A stretch of DNA of 64,000 nt from Candidatus Falkowbacteria bacterium (GTDB lineage: Bacteria > Patescibacteriota > Patescibacteriia > UBA11705), in the NCBI GenBank assembly GCA_003518055.1, contig DOZJ01000003.1, positions 2,046-66,045 of the forward strand. The letters run 5' to 3'. Shown here piece after piece: positions 7,731 through 45,545 of this stretch; position 1 is the first letter of the stretch; every line of letters begins with the position of its first letter. The notes under the pieces were generated by a model that saw only the letters and a program-made list of their open reading frames with translations, did no database searches and was not told the DNA's origin. Position numbers and translations under genes: made by a program.

Positions 7731-7811
7731 ACAAAAATCGGAATGATTCAAAAAAAAGGAAAGTAAAAATAAACAAGGTCATTAAACAAAACAAATATCC
7801 CCCAAGAATGG

Positions 7812-18494: not shown

Positions 18495-18835
18495 TCGTGT
18501 TGGTGGGGTAACAATAACTACCGAAGTTTGGCGGTCGGATGTTGGTTTTTTACAAAAATTAGACAGGGGTAACTGGAATGGCGGAAGTAAAGAGTAAAGA
18601 GCGAATAATAAAAATGGCGTAACTGTAACTACGGAATTAACTGTAACTACGGAAGTTTGGCAAGTCGGTTGGGTTTTTTACAAAAGTATGGCAGCAACAA
18701 TAACTACCCACCTACGCTCTTACTGTGTAGAAAGCTACGGCGCCTGCCTGCCGGTAGGCAGGGGCGCGGCGGAAGTTTGGCGGATGGGGAGGCAAAAGTT
18801 TGGCTATAACAATGAAAGTTTGATGATTTTTTGTA
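18495..18835. repeat. Intergenic repeat cluster (GTAACTGTAACTACGGAAGTTTGGC family). Includes a ~130-nt unit duplicated at 45376-45505
   Basis: Multiple copies of (G)TAACTGTAACTACGGAA(G/T)T, TTTTTACAAAA and GGAAGTTTGGCGG. Positions 18651-18728 are identical over 78 nt to 45376-45453. GC hairpin at CCTGCCTGCCGGTAGGCAGG. Confidence 0.85.
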
Positions 18836-26600: not shown

Positions 26601-29600
26601 ATTGCCGCTTCAATCAGTATTAGCGGTACAGTTGAATCTAGCGCTCAAACCCAAGGTTTCATCGGGCCGGGCGCGACCGGGTTTGGCACGTCAGGCGTGA
26701 GCGATTTTGGAATGCATAGCGCGGCTACCATGGGCGAGAAACCAATTGGAGTTTTTCCGATGAATTCACTGGCCGGTGTAACCTCTCGCTATTTTGTTGA
26801 TTTGCCTGTGACCACGGTTATTCCGAACGGTGGAAAAATTGAATTAACATTCCCCAATGGATTTGATATTACAAATGCGGTGATTGATACCAACAGTCCG
26901 ATGAATAATGATATATCTCGCGGTTCTTCCACCATGACTTTGTCTTGCGTGGGAACTCAAGCAACGAGAACCATTACCTGTACGACTACCGGTGCTTCTG
27001 ATGCCAATGATTATTTATCTTTTGAATTAAAAACTATAATTAATAGTTCTATTCCCAAAGATTTCAACACTTCAGGTTATACGGTTGATGTTAAAACCAA
27101 GTCGGCTGATGGTTTGACTCTGTTGGAATCAATGACGACCATGCCGTTTTTCGTCACCGCGGCCGGATCCAATTCTATCACGGTCAAAGTTTATGCCGGC
27201 GGTCAGCTCGATGCCACCACCGGTACGGATGATATTGATGATGTAACCATGAATTTGTTTGTCGGTTCCCCCATGACCGGTCCCATGGATCAAACGATTA
27301 CTTTTACTAACGGCTATGCGACAACAACGATCAGTAATTTACCCGCCGGCGAATACTTTGTCTTTACCGAGCCATCAATGACAATTGGCGCCAACGAATA
27401 TGTCGGGGTGTCACCGGAGCAATTTTCACTAAATAACAACGTTACCAAGTCATTTTCGTTGAGTAAAATGGATAATTCAACGGCGGCGCCGCTGACAGTC
27501 AAGATTACCGGGGCCTTTGGCGAGACTGAAGATATTGATATTTTCGCCGGTAGTTCCAAGGGCTTTGTGGTCAAAACAATCAGTGATATCGGGACCGTAA
27601 CAAATCAGTCTTATACATTATATTTGCCTTACAACAGCGATTGGAGTATCGGTCTCGGGCCGGCAATGCCGAAAGGCGCAATCAGCGGTCAAGTCGCCAT
27701 GCCCGATTGGATGCCGCCGAAAAATAAAATGGTTCGAGTGACCGGCGTGGGCGAGACAGTCGCTTTGACCAATATGGAAACGCAGGCTGATGTTACCAGT
27801 GCTGGAGTCTCATTTACGGTGGCCTCTGCCGATTATCAAATTAACGGTTCGGTGGTTGACGGCAATGATCAAGGAATCGCTAACGCGGAGCTGTGGGCTT
27901 ACCAACCAATGGGTTTTGGCGGCAGCGGTAATAACACTCGAGCGACAACCGGCGGCAACTTCTCATTGAAGGTAGCGGAGTATGGAACGTACAAAGTAGG
28001 CGCCTTTTTACCTGGTATTCCCCAATCACCGGAATTAACATTGGAGGTAAAAGTTAACACCGGCGCCATTGATGGTAACGCCTCAGCGGATGTTTATCTA
28101 AACGGGACATTGATAACCGCTGGTAGTCCGTTTAAAATAAAATTAAGGAAAGCTGATTACACCATATCGGGTAAAGTGACGGATTCCAGCAACAATCCAA
28201 TGCAATACGCGCCGATTTGGGCCGAGGAATCCACCACGAAACAGACGGTTAACGCCATGACCGATTCCAGCGGAAATTATGTGCTTTATGTCGGTAATGG
28301 TACTTGGGTTGTCAGATCGGCGGTGCCTTTCGGTTCCAATATTTGCGGCAGTCTGACTAAAACGGTGACAATTTCCAGCGCATCCAAATCCGGTCAAAAT
28401 TTGCAACCATCATCAAGCACTTGTTACACTTTGAGCGGAACCGTGACTATTGGCGGATCGGTTGTTACCGGCGCCCCGGTGTTTATCGATGAATGGTCAG
28501 GGACGCTGGCGAGCGGTAATCCAATCGGGGTTTTTAGAGACTCGCGAACAGATTCCGCAGGACAATATTCGACACGAATTTCGAACGGCACATATCGCGT
28601 TGGGACTTGGTCAGAGGATTATGGCGAGCGGGCTATTTTAGTCACGGTTAATGGCCAGGATTCAACGGCAAATCATATCACTGTAGAGGTGGCTGATTTA
28701 AAAACATTGACCGTTAATTTTACCGGTGGCGCCAGCGACATGACTGGTTTCATGGAGGTGCGGAACGCCACAAGCACTGAACGCCGCGGTCGTCCGATCA
28801 ATGATTTATCGAATGCTGAAATTATTCAAGTTAGCGCCGGGACTTATAATGTATTTGTTCATATTGACGGTGTGGGTGACTTTAGCCAAAGCAGCGTTGA
28901 TTTAACCGCTAACGCCGTTATTACATTCAATGTGTCATCAGTGACTCGATTTGGCATTACAGGCACGGTCGAGGATGTTGATGGCAATCCGATCGAAAGC
29001 GCTTGGGTTTGGGTTCATGATCCAAATAGCAATTATAGAACAGGAGCAGCGACCAACTCGTCTGGCGCTTATACTTTGAGTGTAAAGGAAGGTTCAGGGA
29101 TGAAAATCGGTGTTGATAAACCGAATTATGTCTCCCCTGCCCCCAGAACATTAAACGTCACTGAAGCGGCTACGATAGATTTTACCGACGCTGAGAATGC
29201 CGCTTTGACCGCGACGAATTATGTGGTTTCTGGTACGGTGACGGGAACGAATTTGACTGAGGGTTTTGTGTGGGCGGAAACCGCTACGGGTGGTTGGTCA
29301 GGTAGTCCGATTGATTTGGACGGAACCTTTTCATTGCCGGTGACAAACGGAACGTGGACACTCAAAGGTATTGCTCCGCTTCACGCGCAAACGACCTATA
29401 GTGGTTCGATAACGATTAATAATGACAGTGTAACCGGTTTAAGCTTTCCTTTGACGGTTGATGTCACGAAGACAGTCAAAACGGCCATAAATTCGATTAC
29501 TCCTTCTGTCGGTGGTGTCATTCAAGACGATACGGTAGGGGCAAAAGTCGTAGTACCACCGAATGCTTTAGGCAGCGGATCGACGTCAGGAAATATGACA

Positions 29601-30647
29601 ATGCAAAAATCATATACGGCTCCGGCTACTGGCTTATACGCGCCGTTATCAGGTGAGTCAGTCAATATATCAGTTACCGATAACAATGGTCAGCAGATTA
29701 CCAATTTAAACGATGACGTGGAGTTGACTCTAGATTATTTGACTACAAGTTTACCGAGCGGAATTTCCGAAGGCGATTTGATTCCGGCTTATTGGGATAC
29801 TACAACAAATCAATGGATCCCGCTCAGCGGAGTGCAGAATTCGTCAGACAACTCATTTACAGCTCAAACCAATCACTTTACCATTTTTGGTGTGGTTTAT
29901 TCCCCGCTGTCAGTAACGACAGCATCTGGCAGCAGTCGATCCAGCCAGGAGGCGTCACAAGAGCTTGTTGATTCGATAACCGGTGATGGCTCTGGTAGTT
30001 CGACATCGATTCCGGCGACTGAAGAAACGACAGAGCCGGAAACCGCAGAACCGGAGTTAATACCCGATGAGTCAGTAACGGAAACACCTGAGACGTCCGT
30101 GGAAGCTGAAGAAGAGATGGTGAAAACATATACCCCGGATTTACCGGCAGAGCGTGATTTGGATAATGAACGAGACGCCATAAGTCGATATATCAGTTTG
30201 GAGAAAGAATTACCAACTGGTGATGACTGGAAGGTTGTCCAATTCATCAGCTACGGAAGTACGTCTGTGACTGAAGTTTTGACGACTCGGGAGCGTTCTG
30301 GTTTAGTATCTGATTATAAGGATTTGTACGGCCATTTACCGGTGACCGAGACTGATTGGAAGGATATAGATTTGATTGCTCGCGGTGAACAACCGACCCG
30401 GATTTTGACGCTTGAGGCATCAGCTATCAAGGAATTCGTAATGATTTATGGTCGATTGGTCAATTTTCAGACAGCAGCAGATGAGGATTTTATTCATATG
30501 GTGGCTTATCGCTATCGAGTGGAACAACGCGATTTGGCCAGGGAAAATACGGCTTTGGGCATATTTTCTAAGGCTTATGGTCATCTGCCCAATTCAACCC
30601 ACTTTTGGTCGGTATTGAGAGCTATATCCTATGCTAACGTGGAATAA
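23694..30647 (+). CDS. Giant surface protein (2317 aa): LTD, Ig-like modules, carboxypeptidase-regulatory-like beta-sandwich repeats and a conserved C-terminal repeat module
   Basis: N-terminal TM/signal. LTD motifs are present (LLISEVKFTG...NYVELYNRSG...SFERK...GNGFDSDDNNWDF). Four modules carry the pattern xVxFSEAMxxxTVNxxNV. Five or more repeats look like Y(T/V)(I/L)SG(K/T)VTD...G(N/A)Y(V/T)L.V..G.Y. An acidic Thr/Glu/Pro linker precedes a C-terminal domain shared with 21051..23210. Confidence 0.85.
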   Translation: MIHMKKTNRRSRSNHNLLIAFLMVFILGTTGYLTLIKPLAVKAGTSPLLISEVKFTGEVGGNYVELYNRSGSALSTEENVGVQYKFPSGEWTNLHVAFSNESIPASGFVLFGTAGGDLAFADEAAFNTAMAANNNSINGLSLRLCAILSSCVDGNLLDVVGFGSSSTTEGTAISLTDWDPSKSFERKAIFDSTVGAMIAGGEDETAGNGFDSDDNNWDFVMQSTGNPQNLSSAVESLDNAVFEDVVPFIDHGQVFSYHDNADLYLFAAIYDDSNIATTGAKIFYRVGTSGVFTQADSTKTVGAYDLTGSAWYAFVIPQASLQSAVSGGGVVQYYLQVTDGENTATMPDYNPSTTPFNIGVTDDYAGVKSFSGVITDSQLNFVRALVLIENSGFYAVSSAENGAYSFSSLPTSYEPDGAYRVIMVAPNYSSAMVSGMNGSTTVNAQLPLSYGDFGGGDFVGPYVNYTAPNAEMFGAPVAICNLNTSPESLPAGVNFCSPIMVGFSEAMNSGTVNTTNVKLYNFTTSAYVDNLGITATAQDNEFQVFSTTPLSVNTTYALILTTDVRDQAGNALVGNRSDGSYEITFTTGGAAFTGGGGQTFGSGQFQPPFVRTVSPNSGSFNIAMNANVLVDFTTAVNVESANLARVNLVDLDSSEVVSLTRTYSNDKTKIILNPNSTLSANQDYEIRVAGSFESSVGVTLGDPQNSQNTDDYVFFRSSFTTGSTLDSTGPRVLGTLPASAQTDVAVGLGSIEIGVSESLDAATVNTSNVTFKRGSTNIAADIEYDEASKTIRLFPSSALTANASHTVAVKTDVTDINGNAFNSDNDGTNGEVDDIYTFQFTTSSTIETTAPTVTNVRCDDYQCVVTYSEAMNRVTVTDTTDWVDSVGKWETSVLNRLNYSISVDKGAGLATVDITEATFKYDGNTNSVIISNLRLYEDVVDLNNPVPLTLSVYNAAGPADGVRDIVGNVIAASISISGTVESSAQTQGFIGPGATGFGTSGVSDFGMHSAATMGEKPIGVFPMNSLAGVTSRYFVDLPVTTVIPNGGKIELTFPNGFDITNAVIDTNSPMNNDISRGSSTMTLSCVGTQATRTITCTTTGASDANDYLSFELKTIINSSIPKDFNTSGYTVDVKTKSADGLTLLESMTTMPFFVTAAGSNSITVKVYAGGQLDATTGTDDIDDVTMNLFVGSPMTGPMDQTITFTNGYATTTISNLPAGEYFVFTEPSMTIGANEYVGVSPEQFSLNNNVTKSFSLSKMDNSTAAPLTVKITGAFGETEDIDIFAGSSKGFVVKTISDIGTVTNQSYTLYLPYNSDWSIGLGPAMPKGAISGQVAMPDWMPPKNKMVRVTGVGETVALTNMETQADVTSAGVSFTVASADYQINGSVVDGNDQGIANAELWAYQPMGFGGSGNNTRATTGGNFSLKVAEYGTYKVGAFLPGIPQSPELTLEVKVNTGAIDGNASADVYLNGTLITAGSPFKIKLRKADYTISGKVTDSSNNPMQYAPIWAEESTTKQTVNAMTDSSGNYVLYVGNGTWVVRSAVPFGSNICGSLTKTVTISSASKSGQNLQPSSSTCYTLSGTVTIGGSVVTGAPVFIDEWSGTLASGNPIGVFRDSRTDSAGQYSTRISNGTYRVGTWSEDYGERAILVTVNGQDSTANHITVEVADLKTLTVNFTGGASDMTGFMEVRNATSTERRGRPINDLSNAEIIQVSAGTYNVFVHIDGVGDFSQSSVDLTANAVITFNVSSVTRFGITGTVEDVDGNPIESAWVWVHDPNSNYRTGAATNSSGAYTLSVKEGSGMKIGVDKPNYVSPAPRTLNVTEAATIDFTDAENAALTATNYVVSGTVTGTNLTEGFVWAETATGGWSGSPIDLDGTFSLPVTNGTWTLKGIAPLHAQTTYSGSITINNDSVTGLSFPLTVDVTKTVKTAINSITPSVGGVIQDDTVGAKVVVPPNALGSGSTSGNMTMQKSYTAPATGLYAPLSGESVNISVTDNNGQQITNLNDDVELTLDYLTTSLPSGISEGDLIPAYWDTTTNQWIPLSGVQNSSDNSFTAQTNHFTIFGVVYSPLSVTTASGSSRSSQEASQELVDSITGDGSGSSTSIPATEETTEPETAEPELIPDESVTETPETSVEAEEEMVKTYTPDLPAERDLDNERDAISRYISLEKELPTGDDWKVVQFISYGSTSVTEVLTTRERSGLVSDYKDLYGHLPVTETDWKDIDLIARGEQPTRILTLEASAIKEFVMIYGRLVNFQTAADEDFIHMVAYRYRVEQRDLARENTALGIFSKAYGHLPNSTHFWSVLRAISYANVE

Positions 30648-31449: not shown

Positions 31450-31515
31450 GGCGGGGTAACTCTAACTACAAAAGTTTGGCGGGTTGGGTTAGTTTTTACA
31501 AAAGTTTGGCGAGGT
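31450..31515. repeat. Intergenic repeat copy (GGGGTAACTCTAACTACAAAAGTTTGGCGGG / TTTTTACAAAAGTTTGGCG)
   Basis: Matches the dispersed repeat core by direct reading. Confidence 0.75.
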
Positions 31516-32826: not shown

Positions 32827-34362
32827 CTATTGTTGACTAAGGTTTAATAGAGCGTGTTTTAACCGGTTAAGGCATTTGGTTTTGCCCAGAACTCCGGCGA
32901 TTTCGAATGGTCCGGGTGATTTTTCCCGGCCGGACAGGGCAACCCGAAGCGGCCAAAGCACATCACCATTTTGAAGGTTGTTGTGATCAATCATGTTTCT
33001 GATTTCTTTTTCGAGTTGGTCGGCGGTAAAGTGATCTTCCGGTGTTTTGATGAGTATTTCAAGGAGATATTGCAGGGCTTGGATGGTGGTGTCTTTGTCC
33101 GATTTTTTAAAAATTAACATTGTCGGATCAAGGTCCAGTTTGGCTGGGAAGACAAATTTGATCGCGTCGGAAATTTCGTTCAGGCGGCGGATGCGATTTT
33201 TTTCCAGCGAACAATAACGTTTAATGTCATTAAAGGTAATTTTTTCTTTGGTTAGCCGGTTGGTGTATTTGTTGTCGCTTTCATCGGTAACTAATTCAGC
33301 TGAGATTAAATAAGGTATACATTCGGTTGTGAATTGATCGTCGGATAAGCCTCGGAGATATACGCCATTGATCCAATCCAATTTTTCCAGATCAAAAACC
33401 GCGCCTTTTTTGTGGACATTATCAAGAGAAAATTGTTTGATCATCTCGTCGCGCGTATAAACTTCTTGTTCAGTCCCCGCGTTCCAGCCGAGCAAAGCAA
33501 TGAAATTTATTAAAGCGTCTTTCAAAAAGCCGGCTTGGATAAAGTCTTTGACGGAGACGTCGCCGTCGCGCTTACTCATTTTCTTTTTATTATTGTTGAG
33601 AATTTGGGGTAGGTGCGCGAAAACCGGAGCCTGCCAACCGAAAGATTCATATAACAAAACATGTTTTGGCGTGCTGGCAATCCATTCATCGCCGCGCATG
33701 ATGTGCGTGATTTTCATCAAGTGGTCGTCAATGATGTTGGCAAAGTGATAGGTCGGGAAACCGTCTGTTTTTACTAAGACAAAATCATCCAGATCTTTGG
33801 TGTTGACTTTGATGGCGCCGCGGATCGTGTCTTCAAATACAACCTCTTTTTCCTCAGGCATTTTGAATCGGATGACAAATGGGGCTTTTTGTTTTAACTT
33901 TTGTGTCACTTCGTCTTTTGATAAATGGCGGCACAAACCATCGTATTTGGGCGGCAGATTATCTTTTTTTTGCTGTTCGCGGAGATCGTCCAAGCGTTCT
34001 TTGGAACAGAAACAATAGTAGGCTTTATTTTTGGCCAGTAAAGTTTTTATGTGTTTTTGGTAAATGTCCAGACGTTCAGATTGAACATAGGGTCCATAGT
34101 CCCCTTTTTGATTGATTTTACCGTTGTCCAGATATGGTCCTTCATCATAGTCTAAACCAGCCCACTCCAAGGTCTGAAGCAGGTCTTCGAGGGCGCCCGG
34201 CACAAACCGCGTGCGGTCGGTGTCTTCGATGCGAACAATAAAGGTGCCGTCTTGATGACGAGCGAAAAGATAGTTGTATAAGATAGTGCGCAGATTGCCG
34301 ATGTGGACATAGCCGGTCGGGCTAGGGGCAATACGGACGCGGATGTTGGTGTTGGTGGGCAT
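32827..34362 (-). CDS. gltX: Glutamyl-tRNA synthetase
   Basis: HIGH-type motif (PSPTGYVHIGNLR) and KMSKS motif (KMSKR). Confidence 0.95.
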   Translation of the reverse strand: MPTNTNIRVRIAPSPTGYVHIGNLRTILYNYLFARHQDGTFIVRIEDTDRTRFVPGALEDLLQTLEWAGLDYDEGPYLDNGKINQKGDYGPYVQSERLDIYQKHIKTLLAKNKAYYCFCSKERLDDLREQQKKDNLPPKYDGLCRHLSKDEVTQKLKQKAPFVIRFKMPEEKEVVFEDTIRGAIKVNTKDLDDFVLVKTDGFPTYHFANIIDDHLMKITHIMRGDEWIASTPKHVLLYESFGWQAPVFAHLPQILNNNKKKMSKRDGDVSVKDFIQAGFLKDALINFIALLGWNAGTEQEVYTRDEMIKQFSLDNVHKKGAVFDLEKLDWINGVYLRGLSDDQFTTECIPYLISAELVTDESDNKYTNRLTKEKITFNDIKRYCSLEKNRIRRLNEISDAIKFVFPAKLDLDPTMLIFKKSDKDTTIQALQYLLEILIKTPEDHFTADQLEKEIRNMIDHNNLQNGDVLWPLRVALSGREKSPGPFEIAGVLGKTKCLNRLKHALLNLSQQ

Positions 34363-34365
34363 AAA

Positions 34366-34582
34366 CTACGAAAGTTAGATTGTCAGATGTGAATTAGGGT
34401 GTAACTATAACTACGGAAGTTTGGCGGGGTAACTGTAACGGCGGAAGTTTGGCGGGGTAACTGTAACTACGGAAGTTAGGCGGGTGTAACTGTAACTACG
34501 GAAGTAACTATAACTACGGAAGTTAGGCGGGGGTAACTGTAACTACGGAAGTAACTGTAACTACGGAAGTTAGGCGGGGTAA
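34366..34582. repeat. Tandem array of about 7 units (21-30 nt) of the dispersed repeat GGGGTAACTGTAACTACGGAAGTT(T/A)GGCGG
   Basis: Units abut one another with no unique spacers. Each contains the internal duplication GTAACT-GTAACTA. Confidence 0.9.
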
Positions 34583-34583
34583 G

Positions 34584-34976
34584 TTAAGGTTTATTTAAGT
34601 TTGGATTTATTATACGATAAATGTTAACATTTTTTTGATTAAAGTGAACTAATAAACCAAGTTTTATTCCCGACAATTTTAAATATTCTTTGACTTGATA
34701 AAAATGCTTTTGGGAAATTAGGGATGAGGCTTTAATTTCTATAATAATACAATCTTCAATCAGAAAGTCAATCTTACGATAAGTAATCTCACGACCGTAT
34801 AATTGAAGTGGAATTTTGGATTCTTTTACGTAATTTATTGTTTTTTGTTTGAGTAGTGATTCAAGTAGTTGACAATATGATGCTTCCCTGAGACCGTAAC
34901 CGAGTTGTTTGTATATTTGATAAAATAGTCCGTTCAAGACATATGAAAGATCCTCAAAATAAAAATGAGTCTGCAT
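34584..34976 (-). CDS. GxxExxY family protein (PD-(D/E)XK nuclease fold)
   Basis: 130 aa. Contains GYGLREASY (G-x-x-E-x-x-Y) and a downstream block IDFLIEDCIIIEIKA that resembles the D...(D/E)xK core. Confidence 0.7.
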   Translation of the reverse strand: MQTHFYFEDLSYVLNGLFYQIYKQLGYGLREASYCQLLESLLKQKTINYVKESKIPLQLYGREITYRKIDFLIEDCIIIEIKASSLISQKHFYQVKEYLKLSGIKLGLLVHFNQKNVNIYRIINPNLNKP

Positions 34977-35105
34977 ATGGTTTATTATACCATATGGTGA
35001 TAAGTATGGTAAGATAACGGCTGATAAAATAATTATTGTTTGTGTGCGTTAACAGTTAAAAAATACTTATTTTAGCTAAACTTCCGTAGTTATCGTTATA
35101 CCCTA

Positions 35106-35134
35106 TTGACAAATTATAATAAGTATGATATAAT
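35106..35134 (+). promoter_or_regulatory. Perfect sigma70-type promoter P1 (TTGACA-N17-TGaTATAAT)
   Basis: TTGACA at 35106-35111, a 17-nt spacer, an extended -10 TG, and TATAAT at 35129-35134. Confidence 0.7.
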
Positions 35135-35295
35135 GGCTAATCAAGCTGAGAAATTCATTGGCACATTGGCATTCATATATAAGACATTTGGATCTTTTTG
35201 TTGAGGGGTAACTGTAACTACGGAAGTATTACTACTAACGTTTTTACATTCATATAGTATATCGCTTGTCGTGATATTATATATAAAGACACCTC

Positions 35296-35324
35296 TTGAC
35301 AAAATGATTTAGATGTGATATAAT
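35296..35324 (+). promoter_or_regulatory. Perfect sigma70-type promoter P2 (TTGACA-N17-TGaTATAAT), upstream of the GC-rich CDS
   Basis: TTGACA at 35296-35301, a 17-nt spacer, an extended -10 TG, and TATAAT at 35319-35324. No intervening terminator with a T-run was seen before 35683. Confidence 0.7.
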
Positions 35325-35682
35325 GTTAAGCATGAACTTTGATATAACCATAACTACCAGACTACGCTGAAGCTACGTCTGGCACAGCGAAAGTTTAGCA
35401 GCAGCAAGAAGGCAGCAACTATTATTGAATTTGAGTTTGTGTCAACCTGAACTTGTTTCAGGTTCTACAAAATCAGATTCAATGATGGTTGTGAGATGTC
35501 TCCAACCTGTCCGGTGTAAATGGTCAAGACCAAAGAACTTCTTAAGCTTCACTCTGGTCCCCACATATCAAAACCGGGACCTATGAGCCGATTAGCGGCT
35601 GACAAAAGTGAAGTCGAAGATCAGCGGTCAAGACCAACCAAATCGTTTTTGGGGCACAGCCCCGCTTCATGGAGGAATCCAG

Positions 35683-36768
35683 ATGACCGAGCAGAGCACC
35701 CGCATCTCCACCCTCGTCGACTACGTCAACAACCACGGCACGTCGATCCGGCCCAACGTCATGGTCGAGTCCGATCTCGTCACCGGGCGCCCCTTCCCCG
35801 CGCGTTTCGCGCGGGTGCTGGTGGCGACCCAGCAGCTGTTCAACAACATCGACGTGAAGATGCTGCAGGAGCAGATTTTCAGGCTCAACGGCGAGCAGCG
35901 CGACGCCGGCAAGCCGATGCTCGACGGCAGCCACATCACGCTCAGCGAGGCGCTCGCGAACGCCGCGGCGGTCATCAAGTACCGCGACGCCATCGACCCG
36001 CTCCTGATCAACCGCGACGCGCGACTCACCGGCTTCCAGGTGTCCGAGCTGTCGCTCGACCCGACGGAGCTGGAGAAGCACCTCGCGGCAGGCGCCGGCA
36101 CGATCGACATGACCCGTGTCGCGGCCTGGTCCAAGAAGCAGAGCCTCTACGAGGCCGCGCTCGCGGCCCGCGCGGCGATCTTCGACGACCTGCGCAGCCG
36201 CGACGTCACCCCCGAGGAGCCCAACGGCTGGAGCCTGGCCCAGTGCCAGACGTCCGACTTCTGGGCGGCCTACGAGGAGGCGATCAAGGCCTTCGCGGTC
36301 GAGGTCGGCTTCGAGTGGGACGGCACGCCGACCACGCCGACTCCGCCGGTCTACCCCGTCACGGTCGTCCGCGTGTTCCACCGGGACGACATGTCGACCG
36401 GCTTCCGGTACATCCCCATGGTGGCGGACGGTCGGCACAAGGCGGCCGTGCAGATCCTCTGGGAGCAGCACGTCGAGTGGTCCCAGGAGCGCCAGAAGCC
36501 GCCGACGTTCTACCGCCGGTTCGTGTCGGAGGTCTGCGTCCCCCTGAACCTGCTGCAGGACATGCTCCGCAGCGAGGGCGTCAAGGACGACCGGCCGACG
36601 GTCGAGGCGAAGGTCTCGAGCCTCGCCGCGTCCCTGTCCGCCATTAGGGACAACCGGAACGCCGAGTACGAGGGCGGCCGGCGCAACCGCGACGAGGACA
36701 ACGACCGCCGCGGCAGCCGGGGCAAGCGCGGCAACACCCGCCAGAACCACCCCTACTCCCGCGGCTGA
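35683..36768 (+). CDS. Foreign-composition hypothetical protein (361 aa) with an Arg/Gly/Asn/Asp-rich C-terminal tail
   Basis: ATG at 35683 lies 6 nt after GGAGGA. 58 of the first 60 codons end in G or C, which marks this as the true frame. The overlapping ORFs in other frames are Arg/Ala/Pro/Gly-rich shadows. It has an internal Pro/Thr linker (GTPTTPTPPVYP) and the tail NRNAEYEGGRRNRDEDNDRRGSRGKRGNTRQNHPYSRG. I recognised no catalytic motif. Confidence 0.8.
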   Translation: MTEQSTRISTLVDYVNNHGTSIRPNVMVESDLVTGRPFPARFARVLVATQQLFNNIDVKMLQEQIFRLNGEQRDAGKPMLDGSHITLSEALANAAAVIKYRDAIDPLLINRDARLTGFQVSELSLDPTELEKHLAAGAGTIDMTRVAAWSKKQSLYEAALAARAAIFDDLRSRDVTPEEPNGWSLAQCQTSDFWAAYEEAIKAFAVEVGFEWDGTPTTPTPPVYPVTVVRVFHRDDMSTGFRYIPMVADGRHKAAVQILWEQHVEWSQERQKPPTFYRRFVSEVCVPLNLLQDMLRSEGVKDDRPTVEAKVSSLAASLSAIRDNRNAEYEGGRRNRDEDNDRRGSRGKRGNTRQNHPYSRG

Positions 36769-36842
36769 CCGCAACCAACCCACCTCCCGATCTTTCCGTC
36801 TCGAATCTGAGGCATCACAAGCGAAAAACTCTACGAACATAA

Positions 36843-36874
36843 AGACCTAGCATTGCCTGGGTCTTTTTCGTTTT
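36843..36874 (+). terminator. Rho-independent terminator downstream of the GC-rich CDS
   Basis: AGACCT-agcattgcct-GGGTCT (6 bp including one G-U pair) followed by TTTTCGTTTT. Confidence 0.55.
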
Positions 36875-37051
36875 AAAAGTGTGGGCTGTTTAGTTATCAA
36901 TTCACATCTGTCAGTAGACAATGATATGTTTGCTATTTTTGTAAAGCCGTTAGTTTCTAGTTGTCAGAAATAGTAGGTTGCTTCGTCGTTACTACGTACT
37001 CCTCGCAACATAAAAAGGATCAAAAAAATAAAAAAAGATGTTGGTTGATTC

Positions 37052-37080
37052 TTGACTTAACAATCTGTTTGCAGTATGAT
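37052..37080 (+). promoter_or_regulatory. Sigma70-type promoter (TTGACT-N17-TATGAT) for the 37156 gene
   Basis: Read directly from the sequence. The leader contains a CCCTGC/GCAGGG hairpin and three SD-like GGAGG elements before the ATG. Confidence 0.6.
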
Positions 37081-37155
37081 AAATTTAATACAGTTAATAA
37101 AAGGAGGCATCTATCCCCTGCTCGAGGAGGCGCAGGGAGCCAAGGAGGTGACCTA

Positions 37156-37743
37156 ATGTCAAATAAAGACACGGCTGGTGGTTTTTTCCGGGTCACCGAT
37201 GACTTTTGGGCCAATTTGCTCCTTAGGGAGATGAAGTTTCACGCCGGAGACAACGGTTTTGATGTGGCGGAAATATTCATCGACAGAGATCGCCGGCTGG
37301 TGCTAATGGTGCCGAGATTGCCGTCAGATATCACCAAGTTGAATTTGATGGAGGTTGAGCGACTGATCGCCGAGCCTGATGATTTTGAGGAAATGGATGA
37401 CATGCCGTTTTCTCTTTCCGTTATCCGGTCTGCGGGATTGGTGTATTTCATCAAGTTTAATGTGGGTGAAATAAATGTCTCCGTATTGATGCCGGTTCCA
37501 TATTCTTTGTACAGTCAGGATTTTGACGGCTATGTCGGTTTCGTCAAGGTAAATAATGTAACATGGACTGACGCCAAAAACCTGGACCTAGATTCTTCGA
37601 AGTTTTCGGTTGTTTATCGAGATTATGTTTCGGGCTTCATGGAAATTTGCCTCGCGGTTGGCCGCGATGAACAAAATAAACCGATTCCGGTACTGCCATC
37701 GGTCACGATGAGCACTGACGGACGGAAATTTATAAGAGTATAA
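37156..37743 (+). CDS. Hypothetical protein (195 aa)
   Basis: ATG at 37156 follows AAGGAGGTGA, the full anti-SD complement. Hairpin terminator CAGACT/AGTCTG at 37746-37772. No recognisable motif. Confidence 0.6.
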   Translation: MSNKDTAGGFFRVTDDFWANLLLREMKFHAGDNGFDVAEIFIDRDRRLVLMVPRLPSDITKLNLMEVERLIAEPDDFEEMDDMPFSLSVIRSAGLVYFIKFNVGEINVSVLMPVPYSLYSQDFDGYVGFVKVNNVTWTDAKNLDLDSSKFSVVYRDYVSGFMEICLAVGRDEQNKPIPVLPSVTMSTDGRKFIRV

Positions 37744-37778
37744 AAACAGACTTTAACGAAGTCTGCTTTTGTTTATAT

Positions 37779-37888
37779 ACTGTAACTGCGAAAGTATGGC
37801 CGTGGGGGCTACTTATACAAAATGAGTATAGTTAAAGTAAAAAGTGGAGGGAAAAGTTTTTACAAAAGTTTGGCGGGTGTAGCTGTAA
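37779..37888. repeat. Intergenic repeat copies (ACTGTAACTGCGAAAGTATGGCC ... TTTTTACAAAAGTTTGGCGGGTGTAGCTGTAA)
   Basis: Diverged members of the dispersed repeat family, read directly. Confidence 0.7.
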
Positions 37889-37892
37889 TAAA

Positions 37893-38348
37893 TTATTCAA
37901 TGTATTTCAAAATTATCTCTAGCGACCCATGACGCTGGGTATGGATGTATTTTTTTAGTTCGTCTTTGGTGACCCATTTGAAATCATCGGCTTCGAGTTC
38001 GTCGCTTTGATCAAGATGAAAGTCATTGTCAGTGCCGGAAAAGGTTAAAATAAAAATTGTTTGCTCTTGGCCAATGTAGCCTTCCGCCTCATAGTATTTA
38101 AGCTTCAAAATTTTTTTTGGCCAGTCATAACGATATTGCTCGGGCAGTTTTTCTTTGACAGTTAAAAATTGTGGCTCAACGCCCAATTCTTCCGAGGCTT
38201 CACGCACCACTGCTTGTTCCGGCGTTTCTCCTTGGTCCACTCCCCCTTGAGGAAATTGCCAATGATTAAAACGCGGGTTGTGTTGGATTAAAAATTTGTC
38301 ATTTTGGGTAATAACGGCGATAACATTGGGGCGATATTTGTTTGGCAT
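37893..38348 (-). CDS. NUDIX hydrolase
   Basis: Nudix box GGVDQGETPEQAVVREASEELGV. Confidence 0.85.
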   Translation of the reverse strand: MPNKYRPNVIAVITQNDKFLIQHNPRFNHWQFPQGGVDQGETPEQAVVREASEELGVEPQFLTVKEKLPEQYRYDWPKKILKLKYYEAEGYIGQEQTIFILTFSGTDNDFHLDQSDELEADDFKWVTKDELKKYIHTQRHGSLEIILKYIE

Positions 38349-39249: not shown

Positions 39250-39612
39250 TTACAATTCCGGAAACGGCTCCAACGAATAAATTTTTTGTCTGTCGGATTC
39301 CGAGATTAAATTTTTATCGGATAAAATTTTGACCAAAGTCTTAAATTTTGAGTCTTCTTTGCGAATTAAAACCACCAAATCTCCGCGCAGATCAGCCAGT
39401 TTTTCATCCAAGTAATCCTTGGTGACCATGGTGGCTTCGATACGGTTAATTCTGGATTCAATAACGTCAAAGCGCTGATCAATGGCATTAAAGCGCTGAT
39501 CAATGGCATCAAAACGTCGATCAATTGATTCGAATTTTTGATCAACAACAGTTGAGAATTGGTTGATCGCGGCCAAAATTTCTTGTTTATCCGTATGGTC
39601 CATATTTTTCAT
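39250..39612 (-). CDS. Coiled-coil protein with heptad IDQRF(D/N)A repeats
   Basis: 120 aa. The peptide FESIDRRFDAIDQRFNAIDQRFDVIESRINRIE is encoded by 21-bp tandem units at 39469-39531. Confidence 0.6.
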   Translation of the reverse strand: MKNMDHTDKQEILAAINQFSTVVDQKFESIDRRFDAIDQRFNAIDQRFDVIESRINRIEATMVTKDYLDEKLADLRGDLVVLIRKEDSKFKTLVKILSDKNLISESDRQKIYSLEPFPEL

Positions 39613-39737
39613 TGAATGGATTTATTATATCATGATGACAAATCAACGCAATGTTTCGGATTGTGACCAAATTTGGTATAATTAAATTAGAAATCTGGCA
39701 GTGGTTTCGGATAACCTGAGCCGGAAAGGGGTTTGTC

Positions 39738-39953
39738 ATGCTCAGGGGTGAATATCTGCCGTGCCTCGGGTGCGCCTATTACAAAAATTGCCCATGGGCG
39801 CGAAACCAGAAACTCTGTCCTGGATTCCGGAGTGCGATTTCACCGGAATGCCTTGAGGAGAACCGTCGTGAAGCGGAAAGACGCTTGCGGCGCGATCCCC
39901 GGTCGGCCTTGTCATTGGCCCAGTGGCTGCATTTGGGTCAAGACGCGGCTTAA
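39738..39953 (+). CDS. Possible small Cys-rich protein (71 aa). The same locus could instead be a structured RNA
   Basis: ATG is preceded by GAAAGGGG. Contains CLGC...C...C. A terminator hairpin (AAAGAGC...GCTCTTT) follows the stop. The region is locally GC-richer than its surroundings, and three overlapping ORFs make the coding call weak. Confidence 0.3.
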   Translation: MLRGEYLPCLGCAYYKNCPWARNQKLCPGFRSAISPECLEENRREAERRLRRDPRSALSLAQWLHLGQDAA

Positions 39954-40018
39954 CCAACCCAAAAGAGCTGGCTCACTGAGCGAGCTCTTTGACTTTGTGA
40001 TGCAAAACTTGACATAGT

Positions 40019-44385: not shown

Positions 44386-45186
44386 TTGAACGACATTATG
44401 ATTGTATTTGCGGCGGTGGTCCCCCACCCGCCATTAATCATTCCCAGCTTGGGAAAAGATAATACAAAAAAATTGACTAAAACTCAAGAAGCTTTTGAAA
44501 TTTTAAAAAAAGAATTTGAGGCGGCTAAACCTGATACGGTTGTAATATTTTCACCGCATGGAGATATATATCCGGATGCGTTTACCATCAATACTTTGCC
44601 TGAATATGAGTTGAATTTTGAAGATTTCGGCGACTTTGAAACTCGGATGAATTTTGTCGGTGACCTAGGATTGATCAATCGATTCCGGGAACAAGTGGAA
44701 ACTACCCTACCGGTGGTGTTAAAATCAGAGTCGGTGCTTGATTATGGCGTGGGCATTCCATTGTATTCTCTCGCTCAGGCATATAAAAATTTCAAAATAA
44801 TGCCGATAAATTCTTCCTTACTTGACCTCGAACAGCATTTGAATTTTGGCGAGGAATTGAAAGAAGCGATATTTTCAAGTGAAAAAAAGGTGGCGATAAT
44901 CGCCTCAGCTGATTTGAGTCATCGGCTGTCAAAAAATGCTCCAGCCGGGTTTTCACCGAAAGCCAAGGATTTTGATAAAAAAATTATTCAGTATTTGAAA
45001 CAAAAAAAAGTAGATCAGATGATCCAATTCGATTCCCAGCTGCTCAAGGAGGCCGAAGAGTGCGGGTTGAGACCGATTATGATGTTGATGGGAGTGATTA
45101 GGAATATGAATTATGATTTTCAGGTTTTGAGTTATGAGTCGCCTTTTGGGGTGGGATATTTGGTGGGAGAGTGTTTGTTGAAGTAA
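44386..45186 (+). CDS. Class III extradiol dioxygenase (LigB/DODA-like) family protein
   Basis: Motifs seen: AAVVPHPPLIIP, FSPHGD and ASADLSHRL. The start is uncertain (TTG at 44386 or ATG at 44398). Confidence 0.6.
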   Translation: MNDIMIVFAAVVPHPPLIIPSLGKDNTKKLTKTQEAFEILKKEFEAAKPDTVVIFSPHGDIYPDAFTINTLPEYELNFEDFGDFETRMNFVGDLGLINRFREQVETTLPVVLKSESVLDYGVGIPLYSLAQAYKNFKIMPINSSLLDLEQHLNFGEELKEAIFSSEKKVAIIASADLSHRLSKNAPAGFSPKAKDFDKKIIQYLKQKKVDQMIQFDSQLLKEAEECGLRPIMMLMGVIRNMNYDFQVLSYESPFGVGYLVGECLLK

Positions 45187-45545
45187 CTGTAACTACGAAA
45201 GTTTGGCAGCAAGTAGATAGTTTTACGAAAATTAGGCGGGCGTAACTGTAACTACGGAATTAACTGTAACTACCCGCCTACGCTCTTACTTCCACCTACG
45301 CATAACGCTTATGCCTTCGCTAAAGCTATGGCATACAGGTCGGTGGACAGGGTGTAGAGCTACGGCGGGCGCGGCGGAAGTTTGGCAAGTCGGTTGGGTT
45401 TTTTACAAAAGTATGGCAGCAACAATAACTACCCACCTACGCTCTTACTGTGTGAGCTACGGCGCCTGCCTGCCGGTAGGCAGGGGCGCAGCGGAGGTTT
45501 GGCGGGGATTGGTTGCGTAGGGTTAATTCAGGGAAAAGAAAGGCG
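45181..45545. repeat. Intergenic repeat cluster that includes the second copy of the ~130-nt unit
   Basis: GTAACTGTAACTACGAAAGTTTGGCAGCAAG and GCGTAACTGTAACTACGGAATTAACTGTAACTAC (the latter also at 18618-18650). Positions 45376-45505 match 18651-18783. Confidence 0.85.

Follow-up and report, generated by a model that had tools for sequence, protein, structure and literature searches.

How a gene of 69% GC comes to lie between two housekeeping genes of a Candidatus Falkowbacteria genome, and whether it belongs with the genes and repeats around it, are the questions raised by the interval between gltX and a NUDIX hydrolase gene. The window, a 64-kb stretch that was the portion of the genome examined, contains gltX (glutamyl-tRNA synthetase; 32827-34362, minus strand; Pfam tRNA-synt_1c, E=4.6e-107, and Anticodon_2) as the left anchor and the NUDIX gene (37893-38348, minus strand; Pfam NUDIX, E=1.6e-22) as the right anchor. 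A first-pass annotation had described repeats, a GxxExxY gene, the 69% GC gene and a 195-aa gene between them, all of which are real, and had read them as a repeat-bounded variable locus. Our analysis supports a different reading, to which we assign a probability of about 60%: the interval is a composite, formed of an old two-gene module and a recent, lineage-specific nuclease and repeat insertion.

The GC-rich gene (35683-36768, plus strand, 361 aa) starts with an ATG preceded by a Shine-Dalgarno (SD) sequence and has GC1/2/3 values of 0.65/0.45/0.97. The other 52 ORFs of the window have a GC3 of 0.449 +/- 0.063 with a maximum of 0.60, which makes this gene an 8-SD outlier in composition. It is not an assembly artefact, since five other assemblies (L001-L003, L087 and L088), derived from different runs and projects, reproduce the two GC junctions with 100% identity. 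As the analysis covered 64 kb of the genome, further genes of this kind may exist elsewhere in it.

Two predicted promoters precede the gene, each matching the consensus at 12 of 12 positions: P1 (35106-35134, plus strand), of the form TTGACA-17-TATAAT with a TG extension, and P2 (35296-35324, plus strand), which aligns with a promoter in the closest relative, L004. The long 5′ leader (35330-35682, plus strand) has blocks conserved with L004, among them a 17-bp helix (ATTGAATTTG.../...CAAATTCAAT), the hairpins GGTCC/GGACC and GGGG/CCCC, and the SD sequence GGAGGA at 35671-35676. RNAalifold, given these two sequences only, paired 61 positions of the leader, 18 of them with compensatory changes, and the leader had no match in Rfam. 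Downstream, a 10-bp stem followed by a T-run (36841-36876, plus strand) forms a predicted intrinsic terminator, and the gene is thus likely to be a monocistronic unit; the L004 gene likewise ends in an equivalent hairpin and T-run.

Comparison with 12 other distinct genomes (Falkowbacteria, Kuenenbacteria and relatives), in which gltX is at least 59% identical to that of the window (59-75%), revealed a GC-enriched gene in the gltX-NUDIX slot, directly upstream of gltX, in all 12. No GC island was present where gltX identity was 47% or lower. Across the 13 genomes, which are ~40% GC overall, the GC3 of this gene was 0.97/0.85/0.97/0.81/0.85/0.72/0.66/0.95/0.94/0.95/0.97/0.86/0.85 (0.66-0.97 in the relatives), against ~0.25-0.50 in neighbouring genes. 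Total GC content of the copies in this clade of tiny groundwater bacteria was 51-70%, with most at 62-70%. The gene order orf132-M23-gltX-[GC gene, ~200-aa gene]-NUDIX-WecG-ClpB was found in L004, L006, L007, L008, L009, L068 and L084; the NUDIX gene is syntenic in all relatives and in L084 is fused to WecG. The pair of genes is syntenic in every relative with enough sequence, and the two always co-occur. Each copy of the GC-rich gene has a near-consensus TTGACA-17-TATAAT-type promoter and a GGAGG SD sequence. TTGACA-N17 with a TG-extended -10 box was seen in the same seven relatives and in L091, the -10 boxes being mostly TATAAT and some near-consensus (TATTAT, TATACT).

The GC-rich proteins fall into similarity groups (A-E), each of which is monophyletic on the gltX tree, and similarity within subfamilies is nested as in gltX (L007/L084 are 64% identical, followed by L009/L096 at 35-40% and then by L092/L093 at ~25%). 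The window protein is 41% identical to that of L004. Between groups, BLASTP, jackhmmer and hhalign were all non-significant, and the subfamilies are linked only by position and, in groups A, C and D, by the short motif TP..P.VvRrF..G.RY. Because these searches do not support homology across subfamilies, unrelated GC-rich genes could have replaced one another in the slot. A HMMER search of 1.84 billion representative proteins returned only the query and one relative; homologues were found neither in high-GC organisms nor in phages, and phage and viral searches were negative.

Overall, the synteny and the trees indicate that the GC-rich gene and its partner are an old, vertically inherited module, not foreign cargo; the module's arrival in the gltX-NUDIX slot would predate the Falkowbacteria / Kuenenbacteria-like split. 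The gene had been called foreign in the first-pass annotation, a label contradicted by the 65% GC of its L004 copy, the agreement of its groups with the gltX tree and the constraint on its synonymous sites (below). That annotation had also held that three genes syntenic and conserved in all relatives would speak against a variable locus; two of the three are syntenic and conserved.

The GC-rich protein had no matches in Pfam, NCBIfam, PADLOC, PHROG or PDB and, as far as these databases reach, the gene is a member of no known family. The C-terminal tail of the window protein is basic and RG-rich, and basic RG/K tails occur in all members of the set. Proteins of subfamily D also have AKP-rich tracts and weak HhH matches (HHH_5, E=0.0065-0.035; RAD51 N-terminal domain, E=0.15). 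The product is probably a nucleic-acid-binding protein. No signal peptide was detected in it, and AlphaFold models were of low confidence (pLDDT 42 and 58).

The partner gene (37156-37743, plus strand, 195 aa), previously taken for an orphan, belongs to a clade-conserved family of ~200 aa with an N-terminal xFW motif. A ~200-aa gene lies directly 3′ of the GC-rich gene in every genome, with a detectable homologue of the 195-aa protein in 11 of the 13. A local jackhmmer search with the window protein recovered the downstream genes of L004, L006, L068, L098, L007, L084, L009, L096, L092 and L093 and no unrelated ORFs. The downstream gene of L091 was recovered by a search started from L006 (E=2.7e-25), and that of L008 by neither search. 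The protein is 52% identical to its L004 counterpart, and its profile retrieved only 6 proteins from 5.8 billion. The promoter-like site, leader hairpin and SD sequence attributed to this gene were located at 37052-37149 (plus strand): the site at 37052-37080, the hairpin at 37116-37137 (CCCTGC/GCAGGG, covarying in L004 as TCTGC/GCAGA) and the SD sequence, AAGGAGGT, at 37142-37149.

The remaining gene of the interval is a GxxExxY / PD-(D/E)XK-fold gene (34584-34976, minus strand, 130 aa). Its assignment is confirmed by matches to PF13366 (PDDEXK_3, E=6.4e-26) and TIGR04256 (E=7e-26), both over the full model length and well over the curated cut-offs. The gene is AT-rich (GC 0.28, GC3 0.22), so that it deviates in the AT direction, and a promoter scan placed a promoter-like site at 35012-34984 on the minus strand. 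It is enclosed by two inverted-repeat arms, a left arm of 31 nt (34395-34425) that is 90% complementary to a right arm (35075-35105) abutting the -35 box of P1. When the arms are taken as GGGTG...CACCC, TA dinucleotides lie at both outer ends, which is no more than suggestive of a TA target duplication; no transposase was identified. The gene was missing from the slot in 12 of 12 distinct relatives, and tblastn hits were confined to assemblies of the population from which the window comes, with none in any other fetched locus. The nuclease gene and the repeats were inserted recently and in this lineage only: a 0.7-kb AT-rich cassette would have entered between gltX and the conserved promoter P1. 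The first-pass annotation added that GxxExxY genes are usually noted inside 23S rRNA intervening sequences. This one, in an inverted-repeat-bounded cassette, lies outside such a sequence, as had been remarked, there being no rRNA in the 64-kb window.

The repeats themselves form a mosaic family. The element GTAACTGTAACTACGGAAGT has 15 matches in the window at up to 3 mismatches versus 0 in 100 shuffles, and the repeat 20-mer was not present in the relatives' loci. A tandem array (34366-34582) of units GTAACTGTAACTACGGAAGT[TWGGCGGG], with TRF periods of 18/28/47 and scores of 86-227, occupies the entire gap from the PDDEXK_3 stop codon to the gltX start codon; the TRF call itself is 34401-34582, with degenerate units starting from 34363. 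There is an inverted copy at 35080-35099 and a solo copy between P1 and P2 (35205-35239, plus strand; exact 20-mer at 35208-35227), which is a gap in L004 within a region that is otherwise 76% identical. A segment at ~35340-35410, earlier described as a diverged copy (35345-35410), is similar to a different module of the family (compare 18690-18790 and 45420-45500), and at ~35345-35410 it is an insertion relative to L004. Degenerate copies lie at 37779-37896, between the partner-gene terminator (37747-37765) and the NUDIX stop codon; 37779-37800 matches the reference unit at 82% and 37850-37896 at 66%, and their TTTTTACAAAAGTTTGGCGGG module recurs at 31490-31512 and 18676-18695. The family has probably undergone tandem expansion before gltX, with small copies landing in the leader of the GC-rich gene.

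MITE/REP-like elements (REP/BIME, Correia and similar) are short multi-copy intergenic hairpin modules. The window repeats are like them in being short, multi-copy, strictly intergenic and hairpin-bearing, in their tandem and inverted arrangements and in their insertion polymorphism versus a sister species, but the sequence family is new and one arm pair encloses a protein gene. Repeats are present at both ends of the 3.5-kb interval, as first proposed, but the inverted arms enclose the nuclease cassette and not the interval as a unit. Variability applies to the nuclease gene and to the small repeats inserted relative to L004 but not to the syntenic pair, and of the three genes whose co-occurrence was in question only the GC-rich gene and its partner are always found together.

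The manner in which GC-richness is held is visible in the substitutions. Between L007 and L084, dN and dS are 0.04 and 0.88 in gltX and 0.28 and 0.47 in the GC-rich gene (dN/dS about 0.6), and one pair of genomes is 35-39% identical in the GC-rich protein versus 88% in gltX. G<->C exchanges make up 50 of the 77 third-position synonymous differences in the L007-L084 comparison. At 4-fold sites they account for 50/172 in the GC-rich gene versus 2/30 in gltX (Fisher p=0.011), a rise of ~4-fold. Between the window and L004, gltX dS is saturated (3.8) while that of the GC-rich gene is 0.85. These alignments show the synonymous sites of the gene to be constrained to G/C. The GC enrichment is confined to the coding sequence. 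Mean GC stands at 29-33% between -300 and -150, reaches 53% over the initial 50 nt of the gene and 63-69% in its interior, and falls to 55% immediately past the stop codon and to 37-45% farther on. Measured against synonymous-codon shuffles, the mRNA folds more stably, with z-scores of -1.35, -5.6, -3.65, -1.7 and -5.8 versus +0.5 to -1.35 in housekeeping controls; the window gene itself, at -1.35, does not exceed the controls. When L007 and L084 were compared for conservation of a specific mRNA structure, the two directions of the test contradicted each other.

Several other explanations of the locus were weighed. It is highly improbable that the interval is an accessory or defence island at a recombination hotspot, bounded by repeats and carrying three unrelated genes, one of them a recent foreign GC-rich import. 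Like horizontally acquired islands, it has an 8-SD deviation in GC and codon usage and two larger genes almost without database homologues, and it has repeats at both ends and a lineage-specific nuclease gene. However, the slot is orthologous in 13 genomes, with the pair syntenic in 12 of 12 relatives and its first gene GC-rich in each, the phylogeny is congruent with gltX, and synonymous sites show constraint, not a lack of amelioration. No mobility genes, integrase, tRNA genes or att features were found at the locus, nor donor homologues, and the inverted repeats enclose the nuclease cassette only. PADLOC had no match for either member of the pair, which leaves the defence reading unsupported. 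Recurrent replacement, in which the slot would be an integration hotspot for genes of high-GC donors such as episymbiont hosts and each copy a separate recent import, is very unlikely. The lack of detectable similarity among subfamilies A, B, C, D and E is what such imports would leave, and codon usage does resemble that of high-GC bacteria. The known hosts of Patescibacteria are GC-rich, and Patescibacteria take up host nucleic acids (bioRxiv 10.64898/2026.06.21.733656). Against this, nesting within subfamilies is exactly that of gltX, promoter type, SD sequence, orientation and partner gene are alike in all copies, three groups share a motif, and the search of 1.84e9 representative proteins, a set in which genes from high-GC organisms ought to be called reliably, gave no homologue.

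The high GC3 could also preserve an overlapping antisense ORF of 419 aa (35581-36840), real or a second coding sequence, which automatic annotations of the same DNA (L087/L088) do call and which has long counterparts in most relatives. We regard this as the least probable explanation: the frame has a GC1 of 0.91 and a GC3 of 0.64, which mirrors the pattern normal for high-GC coding sequence, it is split into three pieces in L006, and promoter, SD sequence and terminator all face the plus strand. In addition, an open antisense frame would need avoidance of A only, whereas sense third positions are depleted in both A and T (0.01 and 0.02). A regional, non-selective process on a locus under diversifying selection, either GC-biased gene conversion driven by very frequent recombination between alleles or local AT->GC-biased (hyper)mutation, is unlikely but the more serious contender. 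It would fit the dN/dS of 0.59, the divergence relative to gltX, the raised G<->C exchange, the elevation of GC1 and GC2 with its shift in amino-acid composition, and the GC of the partner gene in subfamily D, which is also elevated (0.47-0.57). Effects of GC-biased gene conversion reported in bacteria amount to a few percent of GC3, and the rise seen here, from 45% to 97%, is far above that. The enrichment also has its limits at the start and the stop codon, with a dip over the initial 50 nt of the coding sequence.

The precedent for such a process is the Borrelia vls locus, a conserved locus with cassettes of 49% GC in genomes of 28.6% GC that is tied to rapid protein diversification and for which the authors infer "strong selective pressure" (PMC11499132). 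We found no other precedent, and this one only loosely, for a single gene kept GC-rich. The vls locus has a very strong GC skew (0.52) and G-runs, carries silent cassettes in an array, undergoes segmental gene conversion, encodes a surface lipoprotein and varies within a population. Here, in contrast, a skew of about -0.07 was measured, the 64 kb contain neither silent cassettes nor partial copies, and the protein has no signal peptide. Independent same-population assemblies, from several samples, have identical consensus sequences (0-1 mismatch over 5-13 kb), so that ongoing hypervariation is not seen at the consensus level.

Genes of the Agrobacterium T-DNA are host-adapted genes carried in a bacterial genome. 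By analogy only, the GC-rich gene is likewise a resident gene in the compositional "dialect" of other organisms, in this case GC-rich bacteria, known hosts of Patescibacteria. It differs in showing no sign of transfer, ordinary bacterial expression signals, and neither border repeats nor linkage to a secretion system.

The old module would thus consist of a monocistronic, fast-evolving gene, strongly promoted by its predicted promoters and with its coding sequence kept GC-rich, and a ~200-aa partner. We tentatively favour a reading in which selection on the translated mRNA, or on its codon usage, maintains the high GC; the selected property may be overall mRNA stability or composition, or host-like codon usage. 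The rapid evolution of the pair suggests, from its sequences, that it interacts with a host or a parasite.

The gene X (35683-36768, plus strand; 361 aa), which lies in the slot between gltX (32827-34362, minus strand) and a NUDIX gene (37893-38348, minus strand), is a clade-wide, vertically inherited, fast-evolving gene with 51-70% GC and a GC3 of up to 0.97 in genomes of ~40% GC, and it is always accompanied by the partner gene Y (37156-37743, plus strand; 195 aa) downstream. The first-pass annotation had described the slot as a repeat-bounded variable locus holding three unrelated cargo genes. Its sequence observations were confirmed: the GxxExxY/PDDEXK_3 gene, the 361-aa gene of 69% GC and the 195-aa gene all exist as described, and Y has its own promoter-like site, leader hairpin and Shine-Dalgarno sequence. 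The interpretation as a variable island was only partly supported. The population represented by the window is Candidatus Falkowbacteria (CPR/Patescibacteria); the nearest gltX sequences are those of Falkowbacteria MAGs, and the database entry for the Y protein names it a hypothetical protein of “Candidatus Falkowbacteria bacterium”.

X has the atypical composition expected of a recently acquired foreign gene. Its GC content is 0.69 and its GC3 0.97, compared with 0.449 ± 0.063 in the other 52 ORFs of the window (overall ~43% GC), making it an 8-SD outlier. In five further assemblies, obtained from different runs and projects, both GC junctions were 100% identical, and X is therefore not chimeric; an assembly chimera is also contradicted by equivalent islands in 12 other genomes from unrelated projects.

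Loci of related genomes (L-numbers) were fetched by gltX from species-representative genomes and metagenomes, giving 13 distinct genomes: the window, its closest relative L004, L091/L005, L006, L068, L098, L008, L007/L100, L084, L009, L096, L092, and L093. The order orf132-M23-gltX-[X]-[Y]-NUDIX-WecG-ClpB was retained in every relative with a gltX at least 59% identical and a long enough contig, and in each of these X appeared as a GC island of ~1-1.8 kb (55-76% GC) within a locus of 38-44% GC. No such island was found at gltX in more distant CPR genomes (gltX ≤47% identical). Y is a gene of ~200 aa whose family carries an N-terminal xFW motif. Iterative local search from the window’s Y picked up the Y genes of ten other genomes without any unrelated ORF, and the “orphan” of the first-pass annotation is therefore a member of a clade-conserved family; the Y of L091 was found by a search from L006, while that of L008 was not recovered. 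Aligning the interval across relatives, as had been proposed, showed X and Y to be syntenic, present in 12 of 12 relatives and co-occurring in all 13 genomes, and so they are not variable cargo. Of the contents of the slot, just the PDDEXK_3 cassette and the repeat copies showed presence/absence polymorphism.

Several features of the flanking region were also noted. In the L007/L084 lineage the NUDIX gene and the WecG/TagA glycosyltransferase form a single 394-aa ORF (L084 6675-7859). A 120-aa coiled-coil-like ORF (39250-39612, minus strand), in which a 21-nt tandem repeat (39467-39525) encodes DQRF(N/D)AI heptads, occurs in this population only and, like the PDDEXK_3 gene, is missing from all relatives, here at the WecG-ClpB junction. 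The 500-nt spacer before clpB includes a stretch of locally ~52% GC (39733-40017) with overlapping ORFs on both strands; it had no Rfam match even at E≤1 and may represent either the remnant of a gene or a structured RNA. The largest ORF of the window by far is a single one of 2317 aa (23694-30647, plus strand).

The X reading frame is divergent from gltX in all 13 genomes and shows coding periodicity (GC1 ~0.6-0.67, GC2 ~0.3-0.47, GC3 0.66-0.97), and each genome has a TTGACA-N17-TATAAT-type promoter with a TG extension and a GGAGG Shine-Dalgarno sequence upstream. An intrinsic terminator follows X in the window and in L004. In the identical public contigs L087 and L088, automatic annotation calls an antisense ORF of 400-419 aa (35581-36840, minus strand) rather than X; given the features of the X strand, we consider this antisense gene unlikely to be the real coding sequence. 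The choice of the antisense ORF by gene callers is probably the reason that the X family is nearly absent from protein databases, with searches giving 1-2 matches. This represents an annotation blind spot, in that callers trained on an AT-rich genome take the antisense ORF and leave the family nearly invisible.

By similarity, five groups of X proteins can be distinguished: A (window and L004; 39-41%), B (L091), C (L006, L068, L098), D (L007, L084, L009, L096, L092, L093), and E (L008). Each group is monophyletic on the gltX identity tree, and the nesting of X within group D (64%, then 35-40%, then ~25%) parallels that of gltX (94%, 82%, 72%). Similarity between the groups was non-significant by BLASTP, local jackhmmer and hhalign, with only a short β-hairpin-like motif, TP..P.VvRrF..G.RY, and basic C-terminal tails recurring. 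X genes of different groups are therefore likely, although not proven, to be orthologues, and we refer to them as positional counterparts that share a short motif. HMMER searches of 1.84 billion representative proteins returned no proteins beyond the window’s own and one relative. Among the matches listed in word-indexed searches of 5.8e9 proteins were only the query or a few CPR proteins, one of these searches covering the best 8000 candidates and being hampered by low-complexity Ala-rich words. A phage origin was rejected, as neither tblastn searches of 50,697 phage records nor three scans of IMG/VR gave a phage or viral match. The claim that X is foreign is thus contradicted: relatives carry a GC-rich counterpart at this very position, the X groups follow the gltX tree rather than conflicting with it, and no donor homologue was found. 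Repeated import into the slot is unlikely on the same evidence.

The divergence data indicate that the GC-richness of X is maintained. An unameliorated import would drift at synonymous sites toward genomic composition, and the opposite was observed. Between L007 and L084, dN and dS were 0.04 and 0.88 for gltX and 0.28 and 0.47 for X, and G↔C transversions made up 50 of the 77 third-position synonymous differences in X. Between the window and L004, gltX dS was saturated at 3.8, while X dS was 0.85, with mostly G↔C changes. At 4-fold sites, G↔C differences numbered 50/172 in X versus 2/30 in gltX (p=0.011), and A and T occupy third positions of the window’s X at frequencies of 0.01 and 0.02. A and T are thus kept out of third positions, G and C being interchangeable there. 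The protein itself changes rapidly (dN/dS ~0.6); that of L092 is 35-39% identical to that of L093, for example, compared with 88% for gltX.

The nearest analogue of X is the vls locus of Borrelia, from which it differs in every mechanistic hallmark tested. X resembles a vls-like system in its high GC relative to the genome (69% versus ~43%), but it lacks a strong coding-strand GC skew and abundant G-runs (350 G and 399 C; 10 G-runs and 21 C-runs), and no G-quadruplex runs were found in the window. Neither silent donor cassettes nor partial copies of X were detected within the 64-kb window by blastn and tblastn. A target of a diversity-generating retroelement would have a second copy of part of the gene and a reverse transcriptase nearby, whereas no part of X recurs in the window and the slot’s neighboring ORFs are gltX, M23, NUDIX, WecG, and ClpB. 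Different samples of one population yielded identical assemblies and consensus sequences. With this identity and no partial copies in the window, programmed hypervariation of the vls or retroelement type is not supported. No earlier account of a GC-rich gene conserved among CPR genomes was found by full-text literature search.

Our favored explanation, to which we assign a probability of about 0.4, is that the GC-richness of X is held by selection on bulk properties of its coding mRNA or on codon usage. In each of the five X genes examined, the mRNA was more stable than its synonymous-codon shuffles, strongly so in three (z of -1.35, -5.6, -3.65, -1.7, and -5.8; housekeeping controls +0.5 to -1.35), the z of the window’s X falling inside the control range. 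A permutation test of mRNA-structure conservation between L007 and L084 gave no signal in one direction and P=0.0005 (fewer broken pairs) in the other, and thus the two directions disagree. It is this combination of stability scores, a window value within the control range and an inconsistent structure test that favors a bulk property or codon usage. Next, and appreciably less probable, is a process that acts regionally, for example biased gene conversion. In subfamily D, where Y begins only ~120 nt downstream of X, Y is itself GC-elevated (0.47-0.57, GC3 0.45-0.63); in the window and L004, Y has the composition of the genome (0.41-0.46) and, beyond the terminator, a promoter of its own. Across the 13 X genes, a meta-profile confined GC enrichment to the coding sequence, with mean GC values of 29-33% upstream of it, 53% over its first 50 nt, 63-69% within, 55% immediately past the stop codon and 37-45% beyond.

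The component of the slot that does vary is the nuclease-fold gene. Its membership in the GxxExxY/PDDEXK_3 family is secure, based on full-length matches above curated cut-offs to PF13366 (E=6e-26, 91.4 bits against a cut-off of 22, profile positions 2-114 of 117) and TIGR04256 (E=7e-26, 90.9 bits against 35). GxxExxY genes were described in the first-pass annotation as usually noted inside 23S rRNA intervening sequences; here no Rfam family, rRNA included, reaches threshold anywhere in the window, in agreement with its remark that none is present. The gene is AT-rich (28% GC, GC3 0.22), is missing from every relative and sits between 31-nt inverted-repeat arms (34395-34425 and 35075-35105) that are 90% complementary, the right arm abutting P1, the conserved promoter of X (35106-35134). 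L004 has the empty site, with an ORF-free gltX-P1 spacer of ~320 bp versus 743 bp in the window. This unit is a small cassette bounded by inverted repeats with a nuclease-fold gene inside. TA flanks both arms, although a 2-bp match is weak evidence of a target-site duplication, and the repeat modules are multi-copy, with no second PDDEXK_3 copy in 64 kb. As a smaller point, these observations suggest that GxxExxY genes can travel as small inverted-repeat-bounded cassettes.

The dispersed repeat family reported previously is real, with 15 matches to GTAACTGTAACTACGGAAGT and none in shuffles. Around the slot it comprises a tandem array (34366-34582), an inverted copy (35080-35099), an exact copy (35208-35227) and degenerate copies (37779-37896). 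Relative to L004, a repeat copy (~35205-35239) and a repeat-like block (~35340-35410) are inserted in a leader that is otherwise 76% identical. The repeats are one module of a mosaic intergenic family also present at 18508-18800, 31450-31515 and 45183-45510; other modules are a ~125-nt unit with the hairpin GCGCCTGCCTGCCGGTAGGCAGGGGCGC (18660-18790 and 45385-45505) and TTTTTACAAAAGTWTGGC. A related core, CCTGCCTGCCGGTAGG, occurs upstream of gltX in L004 (9820-9880), and the family is thus older than the split of the two species. Based on the cassette arms, the insertions relative to L004 and the copies elsewhere, the repeats mark small insertions, one of them with the nuclease gene; they are not the borders of a 3.5-kb island, as had been proposed. 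A 15-nt inverted match, TGTCAGATGTGAATT/AATTCACATCTGTCA, was seen between the gltX-proximal end of the array (34363-34394) and a site just past the X terminator (36899-36913); ~0.4 such matches are expected in 3.7 kb, and it could be due to chance.

The suggestion of a defence island was not upheld. Known or candidate defence systems are recognized by a gene matching a model, usually with several clustered, and this was not seen at the slot: X and Y matched no PADLOC families, and the PDDEXK_3 gene resembled a Cas4-like fold only weakly (E about 3e-4). A match to one PADLOC candidate model, PDC-S07 (E=2.3e-15), was obtained for the NUDIX gene, which is nevertheless syntenic and conserved in all relatives. 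X and Y likewise had no match in Pfam, NCBIfam, PHROGs or PDB sequence profiles. The AlphaFold2 model of X (pLDDT 42, from a 3-sequence alignment) was too poor for structure search, and that of Y (pLDDT 58) gave nothing in PDB by Foldseek below E=0.07, with TM below 0.25. Most X members have basic RG/K-rich tails, and group D has weak helix-hairpin-helix matches, a CxxC...CxxH motif and AKP-rich tracts, which together suggest that the X product may bind nucleic acid.

The long 5′ leader of X is common to the window (35330-35682) and L004 (9190-9470, minus strand). A 17-bp helix, ATTGAATTTG/CAAATTCAAT, with a variable hairpin as its cap is accompanied there by additional hairpins, and RNAalifold predicted 61 pairs, 18 of them compensatory, from two sequences only. 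No Rfam match reached the gathering threshold, and those admitted by an E-value threshold were chance-level hits to miRNA and livK. We regard this leader as a candidate cis-regulatory RNA. The Y leader hairpin covaries (CCCTGC/GCAGGG at 37116-37137 in the window versus TCTGC/GCAGA at 7775-7795, minus strand, in L004), and in both its loop presents an SD-like GAGGAGG/GGGAGG immediately 5′ of the real SD.

Deviant GC content and codon usage are a textbook sign of recent horizontal transfer. X challenges that inference, since an 8-SD outlier is here old and vertically inherited, with its synonymous sites held at G/C across several candidate CPR families, and it shows that gene-specific composition can persist for very long periods. 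At this locus, existing metagenomic reads also make it possible to distinguish selection from biased conversion and from mutation bias.

A recent preprint (2026) found that Patescibacteria take up and feed on host RNA, that their known hosts are GC-rich and that parasite codon usage is “complementary” to that of the host (bioRxiv 10.64898/2026.06.21.733656). One could speculate, although we think it improbable, that X is native yet uses the “dialect” of GC-rich bacteria, and is kept so by mRNA selection for a role at the parasite-host interface. X would then be translated with host-derived components or within the host, or its transcript would mimic host RNA or evade the parasite’s own handling of host RNA, or the nucleic-acid-binding product of X would recognize the transcript by composition; Y, itself fast-evolving, would co-evolve with X. 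If this were true, X would represent a new kind of compositional island, one that selection maintains, as well as a counter-example to GC deviation as a marker of horizontal transfer. The host-like composition of X is notable against the background of host-RNA uptake and, together with its strong promoter, fast evolution and conserved partner, may make X a concrete candidate for a function in host interaction.
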